Assembly: GCA_037200905.1 (NCBI GenBank)
Contig: JBBCGN010000005.1
Span: 29,535-93,534 of the forward strand
From: a bacterium
GTDB lineage: Bacteria > Patescibacteriota > Minisyncoccia > Phycocordibacterales > UBA9973
Length of the DNA: 64,000 nucleotides
Direction of reading: 5' to 3'
The translations under genes were made by a program, and so were the position numbers. Shown here in pieces: positions 6,170 through 64,000 of this stretch; the stretch's first letter is position 1; every line of letters starts with the position of its first letter. A model generated the notes under the pieces. It was not told the origin of the DNA and did no database searches. It was given only the letters and a program-made list of their open reading frames with translations.

Positions 6170-7417
6170 TTATTTGATCGCTGTCCAGTGCTGGAGCAGG
6201 TCTACGGCTTTGTCGAGCTGGGGGTCGCGCTTGGCGGCAGCATCGTCCTTGGTGAAGTCCACTTTGACGTCGGGAGTCAGGCCTTTCAAAGAAATGGATG
6301 TGCCGTTCGGGGTGAGCCACTTGGCCACGGTGATCTTGAAGAGCGTGTCGGGAGTAAGGTTGATGACTTCCTGCACCGAACCCTTGCCGTAGCTCTGCGT
6401 GCCGACCAGAATGGCTTTCTTCTGGTCCTGCATGGCGCCGGCCACGATCTCGGATGCGGAAGCGGAACCGCTGTCGATCAGGATGGCGAATTTCAGATTG
6501 TCACTGAAGATATCATAACCCTTGGAGCGATAGGTCTTCTCTTCCCCGCTCTTGCCGTGTCCTCGGTGACGATGGCCTTGCCGGTCGGCAGGAACCAGCT
6601 CGAGATGTCTACGGCCGCGTCGAGATAGCCGCCCGGATTGCCGCGGAGGTCGAGGACCAATTTATCGGTCTTTGCGGCGACGAATTTCTTCATGGCATCG
6701 CGGAAGAGCTGTGCGGAGTCGGACGAGAAGCTGTAGAGGCGGATGACGAAGACGCCGTCCTTGCGCATCTCGTGTCGATGGTCGGGATCTTGATGGTGTC
6801 GCGCACGACGGAAATCTCTACCGGCTCGGACTCGCCTTCGTGGAGGATGGTGAGCTTTACAGTGGTGCCCTTGTCGCCGCGGATGAGCTTGATGGCCTCG
6901 TCGATGGAAACGTCGGAAGTATATTTGTCGTCGATCTTCAGGACCATGTCTCCGCTCCGGATGCCGGCCTTTTCCGCAGGGGTATCCTTGAGCGGAGCGA
7001 TGACGGTCAGGATCTTGTCCTTGACCCCCACTTCCATGCCGATGCCGGTAAAATTGCCCGCGATATCCCCCTCGAAGACCTTGGCCTCGTCCGGCTTGAA
7101 AAAGACGCTGTACGGGTCGTTTAAAGAGCCTACAAGGCCCGAAATGGCCCCATAGATGCGTTCCTGGTCAGTTATGGCGCTGGCGCTCGGGTACTTCTCG
7201 TTGATGGTATTCCAGGCTCCCAGAAGGGGCCGAAGTCCGCGGTGGTGGCCACCTGCGGCTCCTTGTTCTCGATGCCGGTGACTTTCTCGATGGCCGAGCG
7301 GTGGGTGACGCCGACGTAGACGCCGAGGGCGAAAAAGGCGATCACGAGCAAAATGACCAGGCCCTTTTCCCTGCCCCGCAGCGGTTCGGCCGGCTTGTCC
7401 TTAATTTCGTTCTCCAT
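6170..7417 (-). CDS. ctpA: S41 carboxy-terminal processing protease (PDZ + S41), at least 3 apparent frameshifts
   Basis: ORFs 7172..7417, 6690..7037, 6493..6768 and 6170..6445 concatenate into one protein. It has an N-terminal TM, a PDZ domain (GIGMEVGVKD...PAEKAGIRSGDMVLKIDD), DLRGNPGGYL, and SGSASASEIVAGA...SYGKGSVQ. Confidence 0.82.
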
Positions 7418-10205: not shown

Positions 10206-10785
10206 GAGATGATTATACCACTTCGCAAAATAAAAAGAGCAGTGCGCGCGGCGCAAGGCTCTTTTCAGGATTCAATAATAGTCGGTCGCAATGATGCGAA
10301 TGATCGTTGGGGGCTGCGGAAACGGCACGAAAGCGTTGCGGAAGTTTGTCGGCTTTTCAAGCATGGTCGGCGGTCGCGTCATTTCGAAGAAAAGACTTTT
10401 CCAGGAAACTTTTTTGCGTCTCCGTACTACGATGTAACACATGATTTGCTTTTTAGGATTATGAAAAAGAATGCTCCCCCGCAGTATACGACAGGAAGCG
10501 GGTTTTTGCAAAGCCTGCCGGGAAATAAAACAGGGCCGGATAGAAATCCGACCCTCGCTGATCTACTTGCTGTTATATGCTGATATCACTGAGAAAAGAA
10601 CTAAGGAAGGGTCGGATAGAAATCCAACCCTGTTTTTAAAGCCAATATCCTATGAAAAACCGTTTTCAATATAGCATAACCGTATGCGTTCGGCAATAGG
10701 TTTCCATAGGAAATCAAAAAGGGGCCGGAAAATATTCCGAGCCCCTGTACCCGCTGTCCCTATGAAGAATTGTATATAATCTCGT

Positions 10786-10866
10786 TTAGGCCGAATTGAA
10801 ATCCAGCCTATTCTTTGCAGCCCTATATGGATATTGATAGGTATCCATATAAGGATGCATCGGACC
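10786..10866 (-). ncRNA. candidate small RNA (promoter + two hairpins), function unknown
   Basis: It lies downstream of the 10873-10901 promoter. The minus-strand transcript would contain the hairpin 10821-10854 (12-bp stem, 1 mismatch) and repeat copy 10788-10809. No plausible ORF is present. Confidence 0.25.
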
Positions 10867-10872
10867 GCATAC

Positions 10873-10901
10873 ACTATAATCCAAATCACTCCGTATGTCA
10901 A
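10873..10901 (-). promoter_or_regulatory. sigma70-type promoter inside the hairpin-repeat region
   Basis: The minus strand reads TTGACA (10901-10896), a 17-nt spacer, then TATAGT (10878-10873). Confidence 0.4.
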
Positions 10902-11056
10902 GAGGCACAACAAGAAGAAACCCAGAAGAAATTCAGAGAAAAAAGAAAGGGCCTGGATTGAAATCCTGGCCCGTGCTAAATCCGTACCCTATGAAAGAAT
11001 TATTGCGTAGTTTTCTTTTAGCATCATAGCAGACCCGAGAGCGCTGTCAAGATGTG

Positions 11057-21746: not shown

Positions 21747-21989
21747 TTACCAGTTGTTGTCTTTGGTGGTATCGCTCGTATTCGTATTGCTGTTGTTGCT
21801 TCGGGCCTGGCCGCCCTTTCGTCCCGCTTCTCTCGCCTCTTCGGAATCGAATTCATGCGCGTTGCCGCTCTGGTGCGCAGCCTTGCCGCCCTTGCTCGCT
21901 ATTTCCCTCTGCTCGTTCTCGTCCATCGCGGCAAAGCCTCTCTTGCTGCGATTCGTGTTGTCATTGTTAATGTTGTTGTTATTGTCCAT
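21747..21989 (-). CDS. general stress protein with KGG repeats (YciG/Con-10-like)
   Basis: RGFAAMDENEQREIASKGGKAAHQSGNAHEFDSEEAREAGRKGG matches the KGG stress-protein repeat. The ATG at 21989 is preferred because the ORF-track start is a TTG. Confidence 0.82.
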   Translation of the reverse strand: MDNNNNINNDNTNRSKRGFAAMDENEQREIASKGGKAAHQSGNAHEFDSEEAREAGRKGGQARSNNSNTNTSDTTKDNNW

Positions 21990-22224
21990 ATGATTTTGCA
22001 ATCACGTCGCGCAAGTCCTATGGGCGCGACGCTACTCGATTAAATAATTAGTAAGTGTGCTGCGCGCAGCTGCCTGCTGCAATTATTGCTTATAATTATT
22101 CGACCTTCATATACGGAGCCGACACTATTCATATCCTCTTACAAAAAATATGTGGTGTAATTTGGAAGACATAATCCTGCGGAATGTAATTCGGAATTCC
22201 GGGTCTTTTTTATTGCGCAAAACA

Positions 22225-31269: not shown

Positions 31270-31821
31270 ATGAAACACATATTAAAAAATAAATTCATAC
31301 GAATACCTGTAGCTCTCTGCATGGGCCTCGCCGTCTTCTTCGCGGGCGTAGCCATACCTCTGCATGTGACGTTTGCGCAAGGTTCATGCACCAATCCTAT
31401 CGATACCAATGAAAGCGATTGCATCTCGAACGGCGCGCAATGGATACCCGCAGGCGGAGGCGGGTGCAGGAGGCGGAGGAGGTGGCGGCGTGACCGTCAC
31501 GCAGTCCCACCGGCAGCTGCAGCACCCTCAAGGCCAATCCCAAGCCTCCAGGACCTGATCTGCTACGTCGTGGACAGCCTCATCGCCGGCGTGGTGCCGC
31601 TCATCTTCGCCCTCGCCATCGTCATGTTCGTCTGGGGCGTGGTGCGCTACGTCATCGGCGCGGACGACGAGAAGGAGAGGGAGCGAGGCAAGCAGTTCAT
31701 GATCTGGGGCATCATCGCCCTCGCGGTCATGGTGAGCGTCTGGGGCCTGGTGCATCTCGTCACCAATACCTTCGGATTGTCTACCGGCGGCCAGACCTAT
31801 ATTCCACAGGTCAGGCAGTAA
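31270..31821 (+). CDS. VirB2/TrbC-like 'pilin' paralogue 3 (GGN low-complexity insert)
   Basis: Signal peptide ...HVTFAQ|G with Cys residues. The two-TM core reads FALAIVMFVWGVVRYVIGADDEKERERGKQFMIWGIIALAVMVSVWGLVHLVTNTFGL. Confidence 0.7.
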   Translation: MKHILKNKFIRIPVALCMGLAVFFAGVAIPLHVTFAQGSCTNPIDTNESDCISNGAQWIPAGGGGCRRRRRWRRDRHAVPPAAAAPSRPIPSLQDLICYVVDSLIAGVVPLIFALAIVMFVWGVVRYVIGADDEKERERGKQFMIWGIIALAVMVSVWGLVHLVTNTFGLSTGGQTYIPQVRQ

Positions 31822-31940
31822 ACGGCTCTTGCATTCGTTCCGGCTGTGGTATAATTGTCGGGAGAAGTATTATTAATATTATAGGTCGTATCGTCATTAT
31901 CAGTTTATTAGTTGTCCCGCCTCCGGCGGGACGGGAATTT

Positions 31941-32360
31941 ATGAAAAACACATTAGTTAAGTTGTCTGGTTTCGCAGCTGGTTTGGGAACCGCGGTCGCT
32001 ATTCCGTTGTTGGCGTTCGCTCAGGGCGTAGGCACTCAGTCGGGCAGCATCGCGCCGACTAAGTGCAATAGCGGTACTATTACCGACATTCAGAGCTTCG
32101 TTTGTAAGCTTAACGAGATCTTGAGCGCGCTGTTGCCGTTCTTGGTTACCCTCGGCATCATCTACTTCGTCTGGGGCGTCGTTTCCTATGTCATCGCTGA
32201 CGACGAAGAGGCGAAGAAGAAGGGCCGCGATCGCATGATCTACGGCATCATCGGCTTGGTTGTCATCGTCGGTGTCTGGGGCCTGGTATCATGGGTTACC
32301 ACTACCTTCGGCTTGAACAACAACACCACGCAGATCATATATCCGACCGTACCGTATTAA
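31941..32360 (+). CDS. VirB2/TrbC-like 'pilin' paralogue 4
   Basis: Signal peptide ...LLAFAQ|G and a Cys pair. The core reads TLGIIYFVWGVVSYVIADDEEAKKKGRDRMIYGIIGLVVIVGVWGLVSWVTTTFGL. Confidence 0.72.
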   Translation: MKNTLVKLSGFAAGLGTAVAIPLLAFAQGVGTQSGSIAPTKCNSGTITDIQSFVCKLNEILSALLPFLVTLGIIYFVWGVVSYVIADDEEAKKKGRDRMIYGIIGLVVIVGVWGLVSWVTTTFGLNNNTTQIIYPTVPY

Positions 32361-32378
32361 TTCCTAAGACTGTACGCA

Positions 32379-32723
32379 ATGGATCTCTTATTCCCGAACG
32401 TAGCGCATGCTGAGACTGTGGACCAGTTCATAGCCAACGTCGATAGGCTCATCATCAATCCGCTTATCGTGCTCTTGTTCGCCTTGGCTGTCATCTACTT
32501 CCTCTGGGGCATGTTCATGTTCTTGGCCAACGCCGACAACGAAGAGAAGCGTTCTGTGGGCAAACTGCACATGATCTACGGGGTTATCGGCATGACGATC
32601 ATGGTAGGAGTGTTCGCAATCATGCACGTGGTTCTCGATACCCTCAGCATCGACGGCATCAATCCCGAACAAGGTTCCGTGCAATTGGATGATTACAACC
32701 CGTCCTATCCGCCCGCTCCATAG
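32379..32723 (+). CDS. VirB2/TrbC-like 'pilin' paralogue 5 (short pre-sequence)
   Basis: MDLLFPNVAHAE|T..., with the core LFALAVIYFLWGMFMFLANADNEEKRSVGKLHMIYGVIGMTIMVGVFAIMHVVLDTL. Confidence 0.65.
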   Translation: MDLLFPNVAHAETVDQFIANVDRLIINPLIVLLFALAVIYFLWGMFMFLANADNEEKRSVGKLHMIYGVIGMTIMVGVFAIMHVVLDTLSIDGINPEQGSVQLDDYNPSYPPAP

Positions 32724-35008: not shown

Positions 35009-35133
35009 GTTTTGTCTCCTTTTTGTTTTTTGTTATGTAAATTGATTTGTCAAAAGGGAAGCCGACGCGAGATGCTCGTATCAGCTCCGGATCTGACAAA
35101 TCAATTAGTTTTCAAAGGGCACCCTTACCTATA

Positions 35134-41705: not shown

Positions 41706-42959
41706 ATGGCTAAATCAAATGCCTCCGCGCCGAAAAATCCTAGAAAAATCTATCTCGATCATGCTTCGGCGACGCCAGTAGACCCTGGCGCGGCGCGCAT
41801 CATGCACCGGGTGTCGGAGGCTTTTTTCGCGAATCCGAGCGCCATCCATGAGGACGGCGTAGCGGTAAAAAATGCTCTGGCCGCGGTCCGTGCCGCCGTA
41901 GCCGAACCGCTCGGAGCGCACAGCGATGAAATTATTTTCACCAGCGGCGCCACGGAGAGCAATAATCTGGCAATAACTGGAATTGTAAATGCTTCACAAG
42001 ATGAAAATTTTTTCAGGGGCTCGGCCAGACCGTTCAAAAATTCTCATTTTGTTCCGCATATCATCACGACAAACATCGAACATGCGTCCGTGCTCGAAGC
42101 CTGCAAATATTTGGAAAAGACAAAACAAGCCCAGGTGACGTATGTACCGGTTGAGCCGAACGGCATCGTCGATGCGAAGAAAATAAAAAAAGCTCTGAAG
42201 AAGAATACCGTGCTCGTTTCGGTGATGTACGCCAATAACGAGATCGGCACTATCCAGCCGCTTCGTGAGATTGCCAAGGAGATTCGCCATTTCCGCAAAG
42301 ATAGCAAGAATTCCGCTTTGCCGTATTTCCATACCGATGCTACCCAAGCGACGAATTATTTATCCATGAATGCAGAAAAGCTCGGCGTCGATCTCTTGTC
42401 TTTCAATGCCGCAAAGATCTACGGCCCGAAAGGCATAGGGGCGCTTTGGAAAAAAAGAAGCATTTCGCTCGCCCCGATCATGCATGGCGGCGATCAGGAA
42501 TACGGATTGCGCTCCGGTACCGAGAATATCGTTGCTGTTTCCGGTTTTGCCGAAGCTCTGGCTGTAGCGGAAGATATGAAAGTCAAAGAAGTAAAACGGC
42601 TCACGGTACTGCGGGATTATTTCATAAAAAAATTGCAGGCTCTCGATAAAAGAATCATTTTGAATGGCGATGCGGAAAGCCGCTTGCCGAACAATGTGAA
42701 TATCACTAGTGCGAATATGCCGAGCGATCTGTTGATCATCGAGCTTTCGGCTCGCGGCATCATGGCGAGCGCGAAGAGCGCCTGCAAATCCGGCGACGGC
42801 AAAGCATCGCATGTCATAGCTGCCATCCGTCCCGATGCCAGAGAGCTCGACGGCTCATTGCGCTTTACTCTCGGCAGAGGAACGACAAAGGCCGATATCG
42901 ACCACACTGCCAAGGCTCTCGAGCAGATTTTGAACAAACTGAAGAAGTGGTATAATTAG
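41706..42959 (+). CDS. cysteine desulfurase (NifS/IscS class V aminotransferase)
   Basis: An in-frame ATG at 41706 within ORF 41112..42959. Motifs present: IYLDHASATP, FTSGATESNN, HIITTNIEHASV, and SFNAAKIYGPKG (PLP lysine region). 417 aa. Confidence 0.9.
   Translation: MAKSNASAPKNPRKIYLDHASATPVDPGAARIMHRVSEAFFANPSAIHEDGVAVKNALAAVRAAVAEPLGAHSDEIIFTSGATESNNLAITGIVNASQDENFFRGSARPFKNSHFVPHIITTNIEHASVLEACKYLEKTKQAQVTYVPVEPNGIVDAKKIKKALKKNTVLVSVMYANNEIGTIQPLREIAKEIRHFRKDSKNSALPYFHTDATQATNYLSMNAEKLGVDLLSFNAAKIYGPKGIGALWKKRSISLAPIMHGGDQEYGLRSGTENIVAVSGFAEALAVAEDMKVKEVKRLTVLRDYFIKKLQALDKRIILNGDAESRLPNNVNITSANMPSDLLIIELSARGIMASAKSACKSGDGKASHVIAAIRPDARELDGSLRFTLGRGTTKADIDHTAKALEQILNKLKKWYN
42001..42047 (+). 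repeat. short palindromic element inside the cysteine desulfurase ORF (related to 56545..56647)
   Basis: ATGAAAATTTTT (42001-42012) pairs with AAAAATTCTCAT (42036-42047) at 11 of 12 positions. They flank TCAGGGGCTCGGCCAGACCGTTC. The 25-nt stretch 42016-42040 is identical to 56603-56627. Confidence 0.75.
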
Positions 42960-48574: not shown

Positions 48575-48725
48575 GTAAAAAAGCCGTATAAAATAAAGGC
48601 TTTTCAGGACTCGACCCTTACAGGGTCTGTACACCTTTCGCATCGTACTCGCCAAGGCTCCGTGCGATAGGCTCAAGGTCTTCTCGTCCTCTCACGCAAA
48701 GCTTCCGCTTTGCTCACGGCACATG

Positions 48726-48748
48726 CAAAAAACGCCCTTGCGGGCGCC
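48726..48748 (-). terminator. terminator hairpin just downstream of tRNA-Leu(CAG)
   Basis: The minus strand reads GGCGCCC-GCAA-GGGCG followed by TTTTTTGC. Confidence 0.55.
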
Positions 48749-48760
48749 TTATAGTGCATG

Positions 48761-48844
48761 TGCCGTGGAGAGGACTCGAACCTCCAAGGGGTTGCCCCCA
48801 CTACTACCTGAAAGTAGCGCGTCTACCAATTTCGCCACCACGGC
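48761..48844 (-). tRNA. tRNA-Leu (anticodon CAG)
   Basis: The minus strand reads GCCGTGG-TG-GCGAAATTGGTAGACGCG-CTACT-TTCAGGT-AGTAG-long variable arm-GGAGG-TTCGAGT-CCTCT-CCACGGC-A. Confidence 0.9.
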
Positions 48845-56164: not shown

Positions 56165-57298
56165 ATGATGAAGAAAATGACCGTATTCGTCGGCATGTCC
56201 GGCGGCGTGGATTCGTCCGTGTCCGCGGCATTGCTCAAAGAGGCCGGCTACGACGTAGTCGGCGTATTCATCAGGACTTGGCATCCTGATTTTTTGGCAT
56301 GCAACGAAGAAGAAGATCGCCGTGATGCCATGCGCGTAGCGGCGCATCTGGATATTCCATTTCTTACCTTTGATTTTGAAGATGTATATAAGAGGGAAGT
56401 GGCTGACTACATGATCTCTGAATATAAGAAAGGCCGTACGCCGAATCCTGACGTGATGTGCAACAAGGAGGTGAAGTTCGGCGCCTTCCTCAAGAAAGCC
56501 CTATCGATGGGCGCTGATTTCGTGGCGACGGGGCATTATGCGGTGAGAAAAAATTCTTCAGTGTTTTTTTCAGGTCCTCGGTTCTCCTCGCCCCAAATCC
56601 GAGGGGCTCGGCCAGACCGTTCAAAAAACACTGAAGAATTTTTTCTCGGCAAGGGTGCTGACCCCGCCAAAGACCAGAGCTATTTCCTTTGGACGCTGAC
56701 GCAGGCCCAACTTTCAAAGATACTTTTTCCTGGGGGTCATCTGCAGAAAAGCGAAGTCAGGAAACTGGCGGCGAAGTTTAAATTGCCAGTAGCGGAGAAA
56801 AAAGACAGCCAGGGCATCTGCTTCCTGGGCGAAGTGGATCTGAAAGAATTCCTGAAGCACTACATCAAGGAAAAGAAAGGCGATGTCGTCAATGAGAGCG
56901 GAGAAGTCATCGGCCACCACGACGGCGCGGTGTTCCATACCTTGGGCGAGCGGCATGGTTTTACCATTACCGAAAAGACTCCGCATGACAGTGCCTATTA
57001 TATCGTCGGCAAGGACATGAAGAAAAATACTTTGACGGTATCGCAGAATAGGAATACTGAAACCGCCGCGCAGCGTTCTATATACAAGATTTCAGATACG
57101 AATTTCTCGACAGTGCCTACTGATAAAAAATATACCGCACAAATCCGCTATCATGGAGAATTCTTACTGTGCGCTATCAAGACAAGCACCAAAGGCAAAG
57201 CCGAAGTCTCATTTGATCATCCCGTACTCGTGGCGGCAGGGCAGTCTATCGTGCTCTATGACGGCGAAATTTGTCTCGGCGGCGGCATAGTGGCATAA
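56165..57298 (+). CDS. mnmA: tRNA 2-thiouridine(34) synthase MnmA (carries an in-frame palindromic insertion)
   Basis: VFVGMSGGVDSSVSAALL is the PP-loop. NPDVMCNKEVKF, ATGHY, KDQSYFLW and DSQGICFLGE are also present. 377 aa. Confidence 0.93.
   Translation: MMKKMTVFVGMSGGVDSSVSAALLKEAGYDVVGVFIRTWHPDFLACNEEEDRRDAMRVAAHLDIPFLTFDFEDVYKREVADYMISEYKKGRTPNPDVMCNKEVKFGAFLKKALSMGADFVATGHYAVRKNSSVFFSGPRFSSPQIRGARPDRSKNTEEFFLGKGADPAKDQSYFLWTLTQAQLSKILFPGGHLQKSEVRKLAAKFKLPVAEKKDSQGICFLGEVDLKEFLKHYIKEKKGDVVNESGEVIGHHDGAVFHTLGERHGFTITEKTPHDSAYYIVGKDMKKNTLTVSQNRNTETAAQRSIYKISDTNFSTVPTDKKYTAQIRYHGEFLLCAIKTSTKGKAEVSFDHPVLVAAGQSIVLYDGEICLGGGIVA
56545..56647 (+). repeat. 103-nt palindromic element inside mnmA (25-bp perfect inverted repeats + 53-nt core)
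   Basis: GAGAAAAAATTCTTCAGTGTTTTTT (56545-56569) is the exact reverse complement of 56623-56647. The core contains the hairpin CCTCGG...CCGAGG and the 25-mer shared with 42016-42040. Confidence 0.85.
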
Positions 57299-60169: not shown

Positions 60170-61345
60170 ATGGGCTTTTTCTCTGCGGCAAAAAAGAAAG
60201 ACGAGATCGCGCTCGTTTTCGACGTCGGCTCTTCGTCCGTCGGCGCGGCGCTTTTTCTCATGCAGTCGTCCGGCGCGCCGAAGATACTGTTCTCCCTGCG
60301 CGAGCAGATACCCCTCCAGGAGGAGCTCGACTTCGACGCCTATCTCGCGAGTACCATGCGCGCCTTCGAGACGGTGGCGCAAAAGGTAAGCGTGGCCGGC
60401 AAGGGCGCTCCGACAAAGATCTTTTGCACGCTTGCGGGATTGTGGACCGCCTCGCAGACCAAGACCGTCAAGTACAAGAACGACATGCCATTCATATTCA
60501 ACAAGAAGCTGGCGGACAGCCTGATGGACAAGGAGATCACCGTTTTCGAGAAAGAGCATGTCGAGCGCCTCAAGCATTCCGACAACAAGGTCCGACCCAT
60601 AGAGTTCAAGAACATGAAGACTATGCTCAACGGCTACCCGACGGCGAACCCGCTCAACCAGAAGGCTAAAGATCTCGAAATGCATATCTTCATCTCGCTC
60701 GCGAACGAGCAGATCCTCGGGCATATCGAGGAGTCGGTCTTCAGGCATTTTCATTCCAAGGAAGTGAAGTTCGCTTCGTTCCTGATGTCGTCGTTCGCGG
60801 TAGCCCGCGACATGTTCGTGCACCAGGACAATTTCCTGCTCGTCGACATCGGCGGCGAGATCACCGACATCTCCATGATCAAGAAGGACGTCCTGCAGGA
60901 GTCGCGGTCGTTCCCGATCGGCCGCAATTTCATCATCCGCGGCGTGGCTCGCGAGCTCAAGTGCTCTCTCGCCGAAGCTCAGTCTTTCATCTCGCTCTAC
61001 AAGGACGGCCACGCCGCGGAATCGACGGAGAGGATACTCGAGCCCGTCCTTACCCGTCTCAAGGCCGAGTGGCTCGCGAGCTTCCAGGAGGCGTTGGCGA
61101 ACCTGTCGAACGACATTTCCATCCCCGCTACCATCTTCATCACCATAGACGGAGAGTTCGTGGAATTTTTCTCCTCGACCATCAAGAACGAGCAGTTCAA
61201 CCAGTACACCCTGACCGAATCCAAGTTCCGCGTCATCTTTCTCGGCACCGAAGCCCTGCACGGCATCGCCGAATTCGATCCGGCTGCCCTCCGCGACGCC
61301 TTCCTCATCATCGAATCTATTTACATTGCCCGCTTTCTCCGTTAA
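60170..61345 (+). CDS. actin-like ATPase of the FtsA/PilM family
   Basis: ALVFDVGSSSVGAAL (phosphate 1) and LLVDIGGEITDISMI (phosphate 2) are ASKHA-fold motifs. 391 aa. Confidence 0.65.
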   Translation: MGFFSAAKKKDEIALVFDVGSSSVGAALFLMQSSGAPKILFSLREQIPLQEELDFDAYLASTMRAFETVAQKVSVAGKGAPTKIFCTLAGLWTASQTKTVKYKNDMPFIFNKKLADSLMDKEITVFEKEHVERLKHSDNKVRPIEFKNMKTMLNGYPTANPLNQKAKDLEMHIFISLANEQILGHIEESVFRHFHSKEVKFASFLMSSFAVARDMFVHQDNFLLVDIGGEITDISMIKKDVLQESRSFPIGRNFIIRGVARELKCSLAEAQSFISLYKDGHAAESTERILEPVLTRLKAEWLASFQEALANLSNDISIPATIFITIDGEFVEFFSSTIKNEQFNQYTLTESKFRVIFLGTEALHGIAEFDPAALRDAFLIIESIYIARFLR

Positions 61346-63561: not shown

Positions 63562-63609
63562 TCAAGCGTCGCGCCGAAAGGACTTACGCGACGTGATTTG
63601 CAAAATCAT

Positions 63610-64000
63610 ATGACAAAGACAAACGACACAACAGAAGAGAAAGAGAAGGAAGTTTCCATCGAAACTCCGGCCGAAGGAGCAGAAGTAAAAGCTGCGCCTG
63701 GAGCAAAGGGGGGCAAGAAGAAAGTAGTTTCCGGCATCGTCTTCGTAGATGCGACATTCAACAACACCAAAGTGCTTTTCGCAGACAAGGGCGGCAACAC
63801 GCTTTTCTGGTCTACCGCAGGATCTCTCGGATTCAAGGGCGCCAAGAAGGGTACGCCGTTCGCAGCCTCGAAAGTCGGCGACCTGATCGGCTCGAAGGCC
63901 ATGCAGCTCGGCGTGAAGGATTCCGACGTCGTAGTGCGCGGCGTAGGCAGCGGCCGCGAGCCGGCGATCAGAGCATTCATGGCCAACGGCATCGAGATCA
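63610..64000 (+). CDS. rpsK: 30S ribosomal protein S11 (3' end outside window)
   Basis: ATG at 63610. ...GIVFVDATFNNTKVLFADKGGNTLFWSTAGSLGFKGAKKGTPFAA...VRGVGSGREPAIRAF... is canonical S11. The frame is open to the window edge. Confidence 0.92.
   Translation, partial: MTKTNDTTEEKEKEVSIETPAEGAEVKAAPGAKGGKKKVVSGIVFVDATFNNTKVLFADKGGNTLFWSTAGSLGFKGAKKGTPFAASKVGDLIGSKAMQLGVKDSDVVVRGVGSGREPAIRAFMANGIEI

Follow-up and report, generated by a model that had tools for sequence, protein, structure and literature searches.

Rickettsia palindromic elements (RPEs) are repeats of approximately 100 to 150 bp whose whole sequence, arms included, is conserved within each family, and they carry a conserved peptide read in one frame. 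They were reportedly presented by Ogata et al. in 2000 and 2002 as "protein-coding palindromes." RPEs are short palindromic repeats found in frame in many housekeeping genes of a reduced genome (PMC10969869), and their arms decay over time (PMC6649704). Here we describe a hairpin element present twice in a 64,000-nucleotide stretch of patescibacterial DNA (contig JBBCGN010000005.1; referred to below as the window), once as a short copy in the cysteine desulfurase gene iscS and once as an intact long copy in the tRNA 2-thiouridylase gene mnmA. The element is probably a selfish, non-autonomous, dispersed hairpin repeat of Paceibacteria, comparable to RPEs, of which the iscS stretch represents a degenerate copy. 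The short iscS copy is ordinary once the family is known, and it is the family itself that is of real interest.

The IscS/NifS-like cysteine desulfurase (417 amino acids) is encoded by an open reading frame (ORF) at positions 41706 to 42959, on the forward strand, as are all the features of the two copies given below. Solved homologues in the Protein Data Bank (PDB) aligned with residues 13 to 413 of the protein (E value, 1e-75), and the Pfam family PF00266 is on record for an identical protein (P0001). The short copy (42001 to 42047) lies in frame within the ORF, where it is translated as DENFFRGSARPFKNSH, and contributes the peptide ENFFRGSARPFKNS at approximately residues 100 to 113. Its arms, ATGAAAATTTTT (42001 to 42012) and AAAAATTCTCAT (42036 to 42047), are reverse complements at 11 of 12 positions and flank the spacer TCAGGGGCTCGGCCAGACCGTTC (42013 to 42035), so that the inverted repeats reported in a preliminary description of this DNA were borne out in both sequence and coordinates. 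The stem can be extended to 24 nt, with 19 of 24 positions paired and 5 mismatches, between ATGCTTCACAAGATGAAAATTTTT (41989 to 42012), whose inner 12 nt are the repeat described previously, and AAAAATTCTCATTTTGTTCCGCAT (42036 to 42059), which ends in the conserved CCG CAT codons (Pro-His of PHIITTNIEH). Compared with the best solved homologues, the window IscS has 15 extra residues exactly at the element site, and the initial estimate of 23 residues against about 9 in this region was thus roughly right. The peptide was absent from solved homologues of Bacteria, Archaea, and eukaryotes, and the closest Paceibacteria IscS proteins (P0002, P0003, and P0005 to P0007) also lacked it. In the AlphaFold model of the window IscS (mean predicted local distance difference test [pLDDT] score, 79.5), the insert corresponds to residues 101 to 113, with pLDDT values below 50, and is placed between a helix (residues 82 to 98) and a strand (residues 118 to 122). 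An assembly artifact was ruled out, since the same IscS protein is encoded identically on three independently assembled contigs, including JBBCBH010015323.1 of GCA_037975565.1, and members of the family were present in NCBI, JGI, ENA, and Logan assemblies.

The intact copy lies in mnmA (56165 to 57298; match to PDB MnmA with an E value of 4e-84). The alignment with PDB MnmA splits into two stretches around residues 127 to 160, and between them, at the element site, the window protein has approximately 23 residues more than the solved structures. The copy is a 103-nt perfect hairpin (56545 to 56647), in which the left arm GAGAAAAAATTCTTCAGTGTTTTTT (56545 to 56569) is complementary at 25 of 25 positions to the right arm AAAAAACACTGAAGAATTTTTTCTC (56623 to 56647), the latter being translated as KNTEEFFL and having no counterpart in an empty orthologue. 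The arms enclose a 53-nt core (56570 to 56622), near-identical versions of which were found in L002, L003, and L072. From 5′ to 3′, the core consists of TC-A-GGTC (5′ strand of stem P2), the loop CTCGGTTCT, the apical hairpin P3 (CCTCGCCCC-AAATCCGA-GGGGCTCGG), CCA, GACC (3′ strand of P2), and GTTC. When both copies were folded, the predicted energies were −50.5 kcal/mol (z score, −8.1) for the mnmA copy and −14.9 kcal/mol (z score, −2.25; RNA fold) for the iscS copy.

The 20-mer GGGGCTCGGCCAGACCGTTC is common to both copies; the window contains it only at 42016 and 56603, whereas 100 shuffles gave an expectation of zero. The exact common run reaches 26 nt (42015 to 42040, equal to 56602 to 56627), to which TTTTTTCAGG is added. 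When the core remnant of iscS, TCAGG plus GGCTCGGCCAGACCGTTC (42013 to 42035), was compared with the mnmA core, removal of TCCTCGGTTCTCCTCGCCCCAAATCCGAGG (30 nt, with AGG repeats at both bounds) from the long core rendered the short one with no mismatches. The view that the iscS copy is the mnmA element without 29 to 30 internal nucleotides, either as a short family member or by partial deletion, was therefore sound: the difference comes down to 30 nt cleanly deleted between AGG repeats, and the element belongs to a multicopy family found in many other genomes. Of the apical hairpin, the iscS copy retains only the 3′ half, together with the T-run, TCAGG, CCA, GACC, and the A-run; missing from it are the 9-nt internal loop and the 5′ halves of both P2 and the apical hairpin. 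The common bases are read in different frames, as RGSARPFKN in iscS and as RGARPDRSKN in mnmA, which indicates that the nucleotide sequence, and not the peptide, is the conserved entity. The different frames and the zero expectation for the 20-mer agree with the earlier opinion that the two in-frame insertions are not a coincidence. The IscS site is not unique, being a hot spot that is filled in many other Paceibacteria (see below).

The GGGGCTCGG block of the iscS copy is specific to the subtype of the mnmA copy, and the iscS copy was therefore formerly a full copy of that subtype (type C). Shorter variants also occur elsewhere (L141 and L144). Since the apical hairpin alone is missing from these, with GGTCCTCGG and CCAGACC both retained, the 30-nt deletion of the window is a different event, probably a private one. 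A type-C copy like that of mnmA would have shed 30 nt by slippage between the AGG repeats and then gathered 5 stem mismatches, and it would now persist as an inert, disordered loop of 14 residues. Judging from the structural model, a tolerated relic in a disordered surface loop of IscS is the best explanation for the short copy.

A collection with one genome per species was scanned with a 20-mer query, and four matches were obtained. Two were genuine extra copies, located in metagenome-assembled genomes of Candidatus Nomurabacteria and Candidatus Paceibacterota, with 53-nt cores that differ from that of the window by 1 to 3 bases and arms that are wholly different. The other two, in Stutzerimonas and Subtercola, were chance matches in GC-rich coding DNA. 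A metagenome scan with a pattern of two core blocks gave at least 120 matches; among the 120 listed, approximately 50 were real, as judged by an AT-rich context and flanking stems, and approximately 70 were chance matches in GC-rich organisms. All 12 matches in viral contigs were GC-rich and stemless and were likewise attributed to chance, with no sign of a phage carrier. A covariance model built from 33 copies, all from other genomes, detected exactly two sites in the window, namely, those of mnmA (71.9 bits; E value, 3e-17) and iscS (26.8 bits; E value, 1e-4), as well as 57 sites across Paceibacteria loci totaling 407 kb. When applied to 109 kb of contigs selected through mnmA and not through the element, it found one copy in addition to those in mnmA, which suggests a density of roughly ten copies per megabase. 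In total, approximately 60 copies were recovered outside the window from genomes and metagenomes of Paceibacteria.

At the gathering score, Rfam 15 yielded only tRNAs in the window and no family for the element; with E values up to 10, the element matched just unrelated microRNA precursor models, far below threshold, which reflects its long hairpin. Full-text literature searching found no description of such elements in Patescibacteria, and the repeat family thus appears to be undescribed. The window has a G+C content of 53%, compared with 29 to 46% in related Paceibacteria contigs that carry the element, and its arms and runs are still AT-rich.

Intact copies share a common anatomy. On the strand that reads TCAGG, the core (approximately 45 to 53 nt) starts with a T-run, TC-A-GGTC, the 9-nt loop CTCGGWTCT, and the apical hairpin, and it continues with CCA, GACC, one bulged base, T-TC (RTTC), and the A-run; in short form, it can be written as GGTCCTCGG-variable hairpin-CCAGACC with T/A runs on both sides. 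The apical hairpin is GC-rich, begins with CC, and ends with GG, and its interior varies in sequence and length according to the subtype (CCGGGGCCCCGAACCCCGG, CCGGGTCCCTATCCCGG, CCTCGCCCCAAATCCGAGGGGCTCGG, CCTCGCGAGTACGCTCGG, and CCTTCGCCTTCGGCTCGG are examples). Outside the runs, the element is closed by a stem of approximately 22 bp whose sequence is different at every locus. Among the 33 copies of the model, 13 of 19 stem pairs were altered on both sides, with a covariation score of 0.311, compared with 0.092 for shuffled stems; none of 500 shuffles reached the observed score, and values did not exceed 0.116 when the partners were slid. Gapped stems were found in 54 of 59 copies, with lengths of 14 to 37 nt (mostly 16 to 27; median, 22), in contrast to a best score of 4 at random control positions.

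The only ends common to the copies are the 4- to 6-nt T-run and A-run beside the core, present in nearly all of them; beyond these runs no shared terminal inverted repeats were found, the remaining stem being locus specific. The flanking inverted repeats noted in the preliminary description are thus present, but as locus-specific stems made from gene sequence and not as terminal repeats of the element. Comparison of the copy edges revealed no target-site duplication: in the 49 copies whose stems measured 6 nt or more, a 2-nt direct repeat was found in 5 (control, 5), a 3-nt repeat in 3, and a repeat of 4 nt or more in none. Isolated half-elements, which could be the trace of a parent insertion sequence, were absent from 512 kb of Paceibacteria loci.

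Sixty-one copies were classified by location: 31 lay in sense orientation and 11 in antisense orientation within ORFs of at least 120 amino acids, and 19 were intergenic, so that 69% were intragenic. The intragenic copies fall in all three sense frames but in just two of the antisense frames; the remaining one contains a TGA codon. The occurrence of both orientations and of five frames indicates that DNA or RNA is conserved, and not a peptide. Both window copies are in frame and free of stop codons, as are 42 of the 61 copies elsewhere. Host genes include those for LeuRS, PolA, LigA, UvrD, PheT, the CCA-adding enzyme, IscS, and MnmA. A Pfam scan of eight host ORFs (leucyl-tRNA synthetase, DNA polymerase I, NAD-dependent DNA ligase, UvrD/PcrA helicase, a class I tRNA synthetase of the Ile/Val type, the PheRS beta subunit, an FAD-linked oxidase, and the CCA-adding enzyme) placed the element between domains or at their edges. 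Thus, to judge from these eight hosts and from the predicted model of IscS, copies insert, or survive only, where an extra 15 to 30 residues are tolerated, namely, in surface loops and interdomain linkers, in addition to intergenic DNA. The tolerant surface location of the IscS and MnmA inserts is itself a prediction. Since only in-frame, stop-free copies survive in essential genes, we infer that translation runs through these copies and yields junk peptide in the frame that each happens to occupy.

The same protein loops have been used repeatedly. In an alignment of 34 Paceibacteria IscS orthologues, 57 to 66% identical to the window protein, about half have an insert at the window position. 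Several of these inserts correspond to the same element in other frames or lengths (FFRS..ARPFKN, FFSSPRFSSRLRSARPFKK, and FLGPRKGVSQTLKN), and others look unrelated. The DNA of three filled orthologues contained the element at the same place and in the same orientation, with different apical hairpins and with arms that differ yet remain complementary. Further insertion hot spots of IscS were observed at alignment columns 250 to 280, 390 to 420, and 490 to 513; the site before FHTDATQA holds the same element in L096 (1192 to 1235), and the IscS protein P0047 carries one peptide (LTPSPLSL..RRGVGER) at two sites. For its part, MnmA showed 15 to 60 extra residues at the window position in 116 of 120 orthologues. 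Inserts of the element family occur there in sense (VFFSGPR..RPDRSKN) and in antisense (FLNGLAEP..ENRGPEKK) orientation, together with at least eight other peptide families. Sites orthologous to 56545 to 56647 of the window are filled in L141 (10391 to 10446), L144 (1147 to 1202), and L145 (10393 to 10461). In L147 (6467 to 6628; core, 6509 to 6566) and L148 (10358 to 10513; core, 10400 to 10447), the cores are unrelated to the element, yet they also form hairpins with arms of approximately 20 to 24 nt, and further instances of the L148 core were found in a DNA ligase gene (L123, 5168 to 5186) and on L034 and L024. Paceibacteria therefore carry several families of such elements, for which a few protein loops are hot spots.

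Several observations weigh against regarding the family as selfish. No transposase, partner gene, common terminal repeats, or target-site duplication was found, and mobility is deduced from the dispersed distribution alone; translation of the insert is likewise only inferred. It would be odd for a purely deleterious parasite that almost every MnmA orthologue has preserved a hairpin of some kind at a single site. The narrow range of stem lengths (about 16 to 27 bp) looks like constraint rather than neutral junk, and so do the arm mismatches, which on the TCAGG strand comprised 34 A·C or C·A pairs versus 6 G·T or T·G pairs (binomial P = 8e-6). The core blocks stay the same between genomes in which the IscS proteins share only about 60% identity, with which a host-level function would be equally compatible. 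The invariance of the anchor blocks in the metagenome set was imposed by the design of the search pattern, so that their conservation is tested independently only by the copies found through protein homology (L005, L141, L144, and L145), in which GGTCCTCGG and CCAGACC were kept.

The stems themselves seem to derive from the host genes. The empty mnmA site of L143 reads AAA AAA AAT TCT TTA GTG followed by AAA GGT. Over its first 18 nt, it agrees with the left arm of filled sites at 17 positions in the case of L141 and at 15 in that of the window, and the right arm has no counterpart. The filled and empty sites differ in length by 63 nt, which equals one arm plus the short core and the runs. Similarly, the left flank of the iscS site contains xAT GCx ([N/H/Y]-A), the complement of the CCG CAT codons, in 11 of 14 filled orthologues versus 1 of 12 empty ones. 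Both sites indicate that the arms were made from, or converted to, inverted neighboring gene sequence. Arms that have diverged between orthologues were still paired, as observed for mnmA (GAGAAAAAATTCTTCAGTGTTTTTT in the window versus AGAAAATCAGATAGTGAATTTTTT in L144) and for two UvrD genes (GTCGGCAATCC/GTTGGTAATGC), and on these sequences the arms appear to have been kept paired after their formation. Template switching is a documented creator and maintainer of hairpins (PMC8794818) and has been proposed for the translated palindromes of hairworm (Nematomorpha) mitochondria (PMC6649704). The locus-specific stems most likely arose by template switching during replication: fold-back copying around a stable core would turn one flank into an inverted copy of the other, and the same process would later mend stem mismatches. 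This would explain the near-perfect stems, the "compensatory" changes made in one step between orthologues, and the stems that run into invariant codons.

The outer arms of mnmA look homologous across different core families, and cores may thus have been inserted into, or exchanged within, a preexisting quasi-palindrome of A-runs and T-runs. Such a quasi-palindrome, in weak form, may have been present at the ancestral mnmA site. A related observation was made in L142 (5246 to 5338; protein P0217), where the "empty" mnmA site reads AAA AAT TCA AAA GAT TTT TAT TTG, in which repeats of 6 nt lie inverted around a spacer of 7 nt. The sequence is similar to the outer arms at filled sites; instead of never having been occupied, the site may carry the footprint left when a hairpin was deleted. 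The outer arms common to different core families bear on the first alternative, a hitherto unrecognized kind of mobile element, according to which the mobile unit would be the hairpin loop (the core) only, and the stem of approximately 22 bp would be a long-lived, host-coding "socket" that exchanges unrelated cores, the core being perhaps similar to a tRNA minihelix and copied via the complementary strand. Such an arrangement would account for the MnmA hairpins at one site, for the shared outer stems, and for the lack of both terminal repeats and duplicated targets. With a GC hairpin plus CCA at its end and 13 nt in common with the T-arm of a tRNA-Lys, the core may be a minihelix-like unit. 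We regard this alternative as unlikely.

The strand asymmetry of the element bears on a second alternative. A·C mismatches outnumbered G·T mismatches in sense copies (23:3) as well as in intergenic (8:3) and antisense (3:0) ones, and the excess thus follows the orientation of the element. On the complementary strand, these A·C mismatches become G·T wobbles, and two conserved UC/UC internal loops become tandem G·A/A·G pairs; that strand was predicted to be more stable in 48 of 49 copies, a result that its G-richness alone would favor. The data suggest that the strand that folds, or the strand copied by fold-back with G·T misincorporation, is the complement of the TCAGG strand. That strand would be antisense to the mRNAs of most hosts, and the pattern therefore speaks against a function in the mRNA and points to single-stranded DNA or an antisense intermediate. 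GC skew gave no usable signal for orienting the window with respect to replication. The asymmetry, the tandem G·A pairs, the strong stem covariation with its narrow lengths (median, 22 bp), the core blocks kept across diverged genomes, and the hairpin at the same site of almost all MnmA orthologues could all be expected of a structured element, RNA or single-stranded DNA, that benefits the host and is retained in housekeeping genes because it is useful. The core and the stem, of about two helical turns, would then form the recognition site for RNase III or another RNA-binding protein (acting on mRNA stability or translation pausing) or for a replication, repair, or segregation factor that acts on DNA hairpins. 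However, no single role at the mRNA level fits 31 sense, 11 antisense, and additional intergenic copies, with a favored folding strand that is antisense to most host mRNAs, and the better folding of a G-rich strand is expected from composition alone. Moreover, the closest orthologues can lack the element (P0002 to P0007, P0162, P0207, and P0224), the same sites are occupied by unrelated core families, and the iscS copy of the window lost half of its core with the gene still present. A benefit to the host is therefore doubtful.

A third alternative derives the element from a tRNA. The 13-mer AGGTCCTCGGTTC (core positions 56572 to 56584) is identical to the variable loop plus T-stem of tRNA-Lys(UUU) in L108 (1001 to 1076); it was found by a screen for exact 10-mers outside elements in 512 kb of Paceibacteria DNA, in which another match (L106) was judged to be due to chance. 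The type-C core can be parsed as AGGTC/CTCGG/expanded loop/CCGAG/GGGCTCG/G/CCA, in the manner of a tRNA 3′ half (AGGTC as the variable loop, CTCGG as the T-stem, a hairpin, and CCA), and every subtype has a GC-rich hairpin directly before CCA. A retro-element or minihelix of this origin would have spread via an RNA intermediate, and snap-back synthesis of cDNA would have produced the inverted copy of the flank and the G·T-type mispairs that are observed on the minus strand. Against this, the Rfam tRNA model did not match the element at E values up to 10, the CCGAG partner is present in type C only, and the invariance of CCA in the metagenome set was imposed by the search pattern. No reverse transcriptase turned up, although no search was aimed at one, and a single tRNA match is thin evidence. 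A tRNA origin of the whole element is accordingly improbable.

The weakest alternative, a lineage-specific IscS loop under selection at the protein level with an incidental similarity to mnmA, would agree with the many Paceibacteria IscS proteins that have an insert here, several of them sharing ARPFKN-like peptides, but it was rejected on the frame data and is very improbable, given that mnmA reads the same nucleotides in another frame, orthologous IscS inserts use other frames (FFRS..ARPFKN versus FLGPRKGVSQTLKN), antisense copies occur in other genes, the closest IscS orthologues have no insert, the loop is predicted to be disordered, and the identity extends over 26 nt of DNA. An intein, an intron, and a translational bypass element (as in T4 gene 60 or the byps of mitochondria) were also discarded, the insert being too short, devoid of a catalytic core, in frame, and stop-free, with an uninterrupted frame in both window copies as well as in the 42 copies mentioned above.

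If the selfish, dispersed hairpin repeat is confirmed, selfish DNA inside coding genes, best known from Rickettsia, would be extended to the candidate phyla radiation, a huge branch of uncultivated bacteria whose very small genomes are usually called streamlined. Junk loops of 15 to 60 residues at recurrent positions of essential enzymes would inflate the apparent divergence of proteins, disturb alignments, phylogenies, and structure predictions, and be mistakable for lineage-specific domains. The combination of a conserved core with host-derived stems links mobile repeats with template switching and would offer a natural system to study how hairpins arise and persist in translated sequence. 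In addition, a single-stranded intermediate or a binding partner might lie behind the strand-specific mismatches and the constant length of the stems.

Other repeats were observed in the window. Four units of approximately 34 nt (GAAATAAAACAGGGCCGGATAGAAATCCGACCCT-like), each with a GC-rich hairpin, lie within 450 nt at 10522 to 10972 and may represent either clustered terminator-like hairpins or a further small repeat. A segment of approximately 64 nt is present in inverted orientation at 21971 to 22033 and 63565 to 63628, 41.5 kb apart and with 77 to 91% identity; it contains a CGTCGCGC/GCGCGACG hairpin followed by CATATG and an apparent gene start, and it could be the leader or regulatory hairpin shared by two paralogous genes. 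At 60936 to 61020, in a 391-codon ORF (60170 to 61345), two arms of 13 nt (TCCGCGGCGTGGC / GCCACGCCGCGGA) form a perfect inverted repeat around a 59-nt spacer; both are translated (IRGVA and GHAAE), and the repeat may be a coding palindrome without the core of the element. Perfect hairpins with 13-nt stems were also found at 35040 to 35106 (41-nt loop), between ORFs, and at 48715 to 48767 (27-nt loop), the latter adjoining and overlapping the 3′ end of tRNA-Leu(CAG) (48760 to 48844). Finally, three tandem paralogous small genes occupy 31592 to 32611 (repeat families D1, D3, D8, and D9), and their syntenic counterparts in L006 and L007 showed matches to the Pfam family T4SS_pilin (PF18895).

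The element can be compared with several described classes of small repeats. [quoted passage not shown] MITEs have terminal inverted repeats common to all copies and target-site duplications, whereas both features were looked for here and the element has neither. REPs are extragenic and have conserved arms and a GTAG head, whereas 69% of the copies studied here are intragenic and show a conserved loop, variable arms, and no GTAG head. With mitochondrial mobile hairpins (the GC clusters of yeast, the byps of Magnusiomyces [PMC6649704], and the double-hairpin elements of Allomyces), the element shares the invasion of AT-rich, compact genomes, coding genes included, by GC-rich hairpins. Those hairpins have no long locus-specific stems, and byps, unlike the in-frame, stop-free copies described here, break the reading frame and rely on translational bypassing to be skipped. 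The coding palindromes of Nematomorpha and the hairpins produced by template switching are similar in having near-perfect inverted repeats within coding sequence with both arms translated, in their apparently maintained perfection, and in their gains and losses between related species (PMC6649704, PMC8794818). They lack a conserved, dispersed loop core and form no repeat family, whereas here a conserved core occupies the center of the hairpin.

By description, the closest likeness is to RPEs, which are also multicopy, palindromic, inserted in frame in unrelated housekeeping ORFs at tolerant sites, and present in intergenic regions as well, and in neither case is there a recognizable transposase. 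The hosts belong to different phyla, Patescibacteria here and Alphaproteobacteria in the case of RPEs. In the Paceibacteria repeats, only the core of approximately 45 to 53 nt is shared, and the stem of approximately 22 bp is unique to each locus and derived from the host. Five reading frames are used, and the same protein loops are reused by several core families. In contrast to the decaying arms of RPEs, the stems of Paceibacteria stay near-perfect between orthologues.

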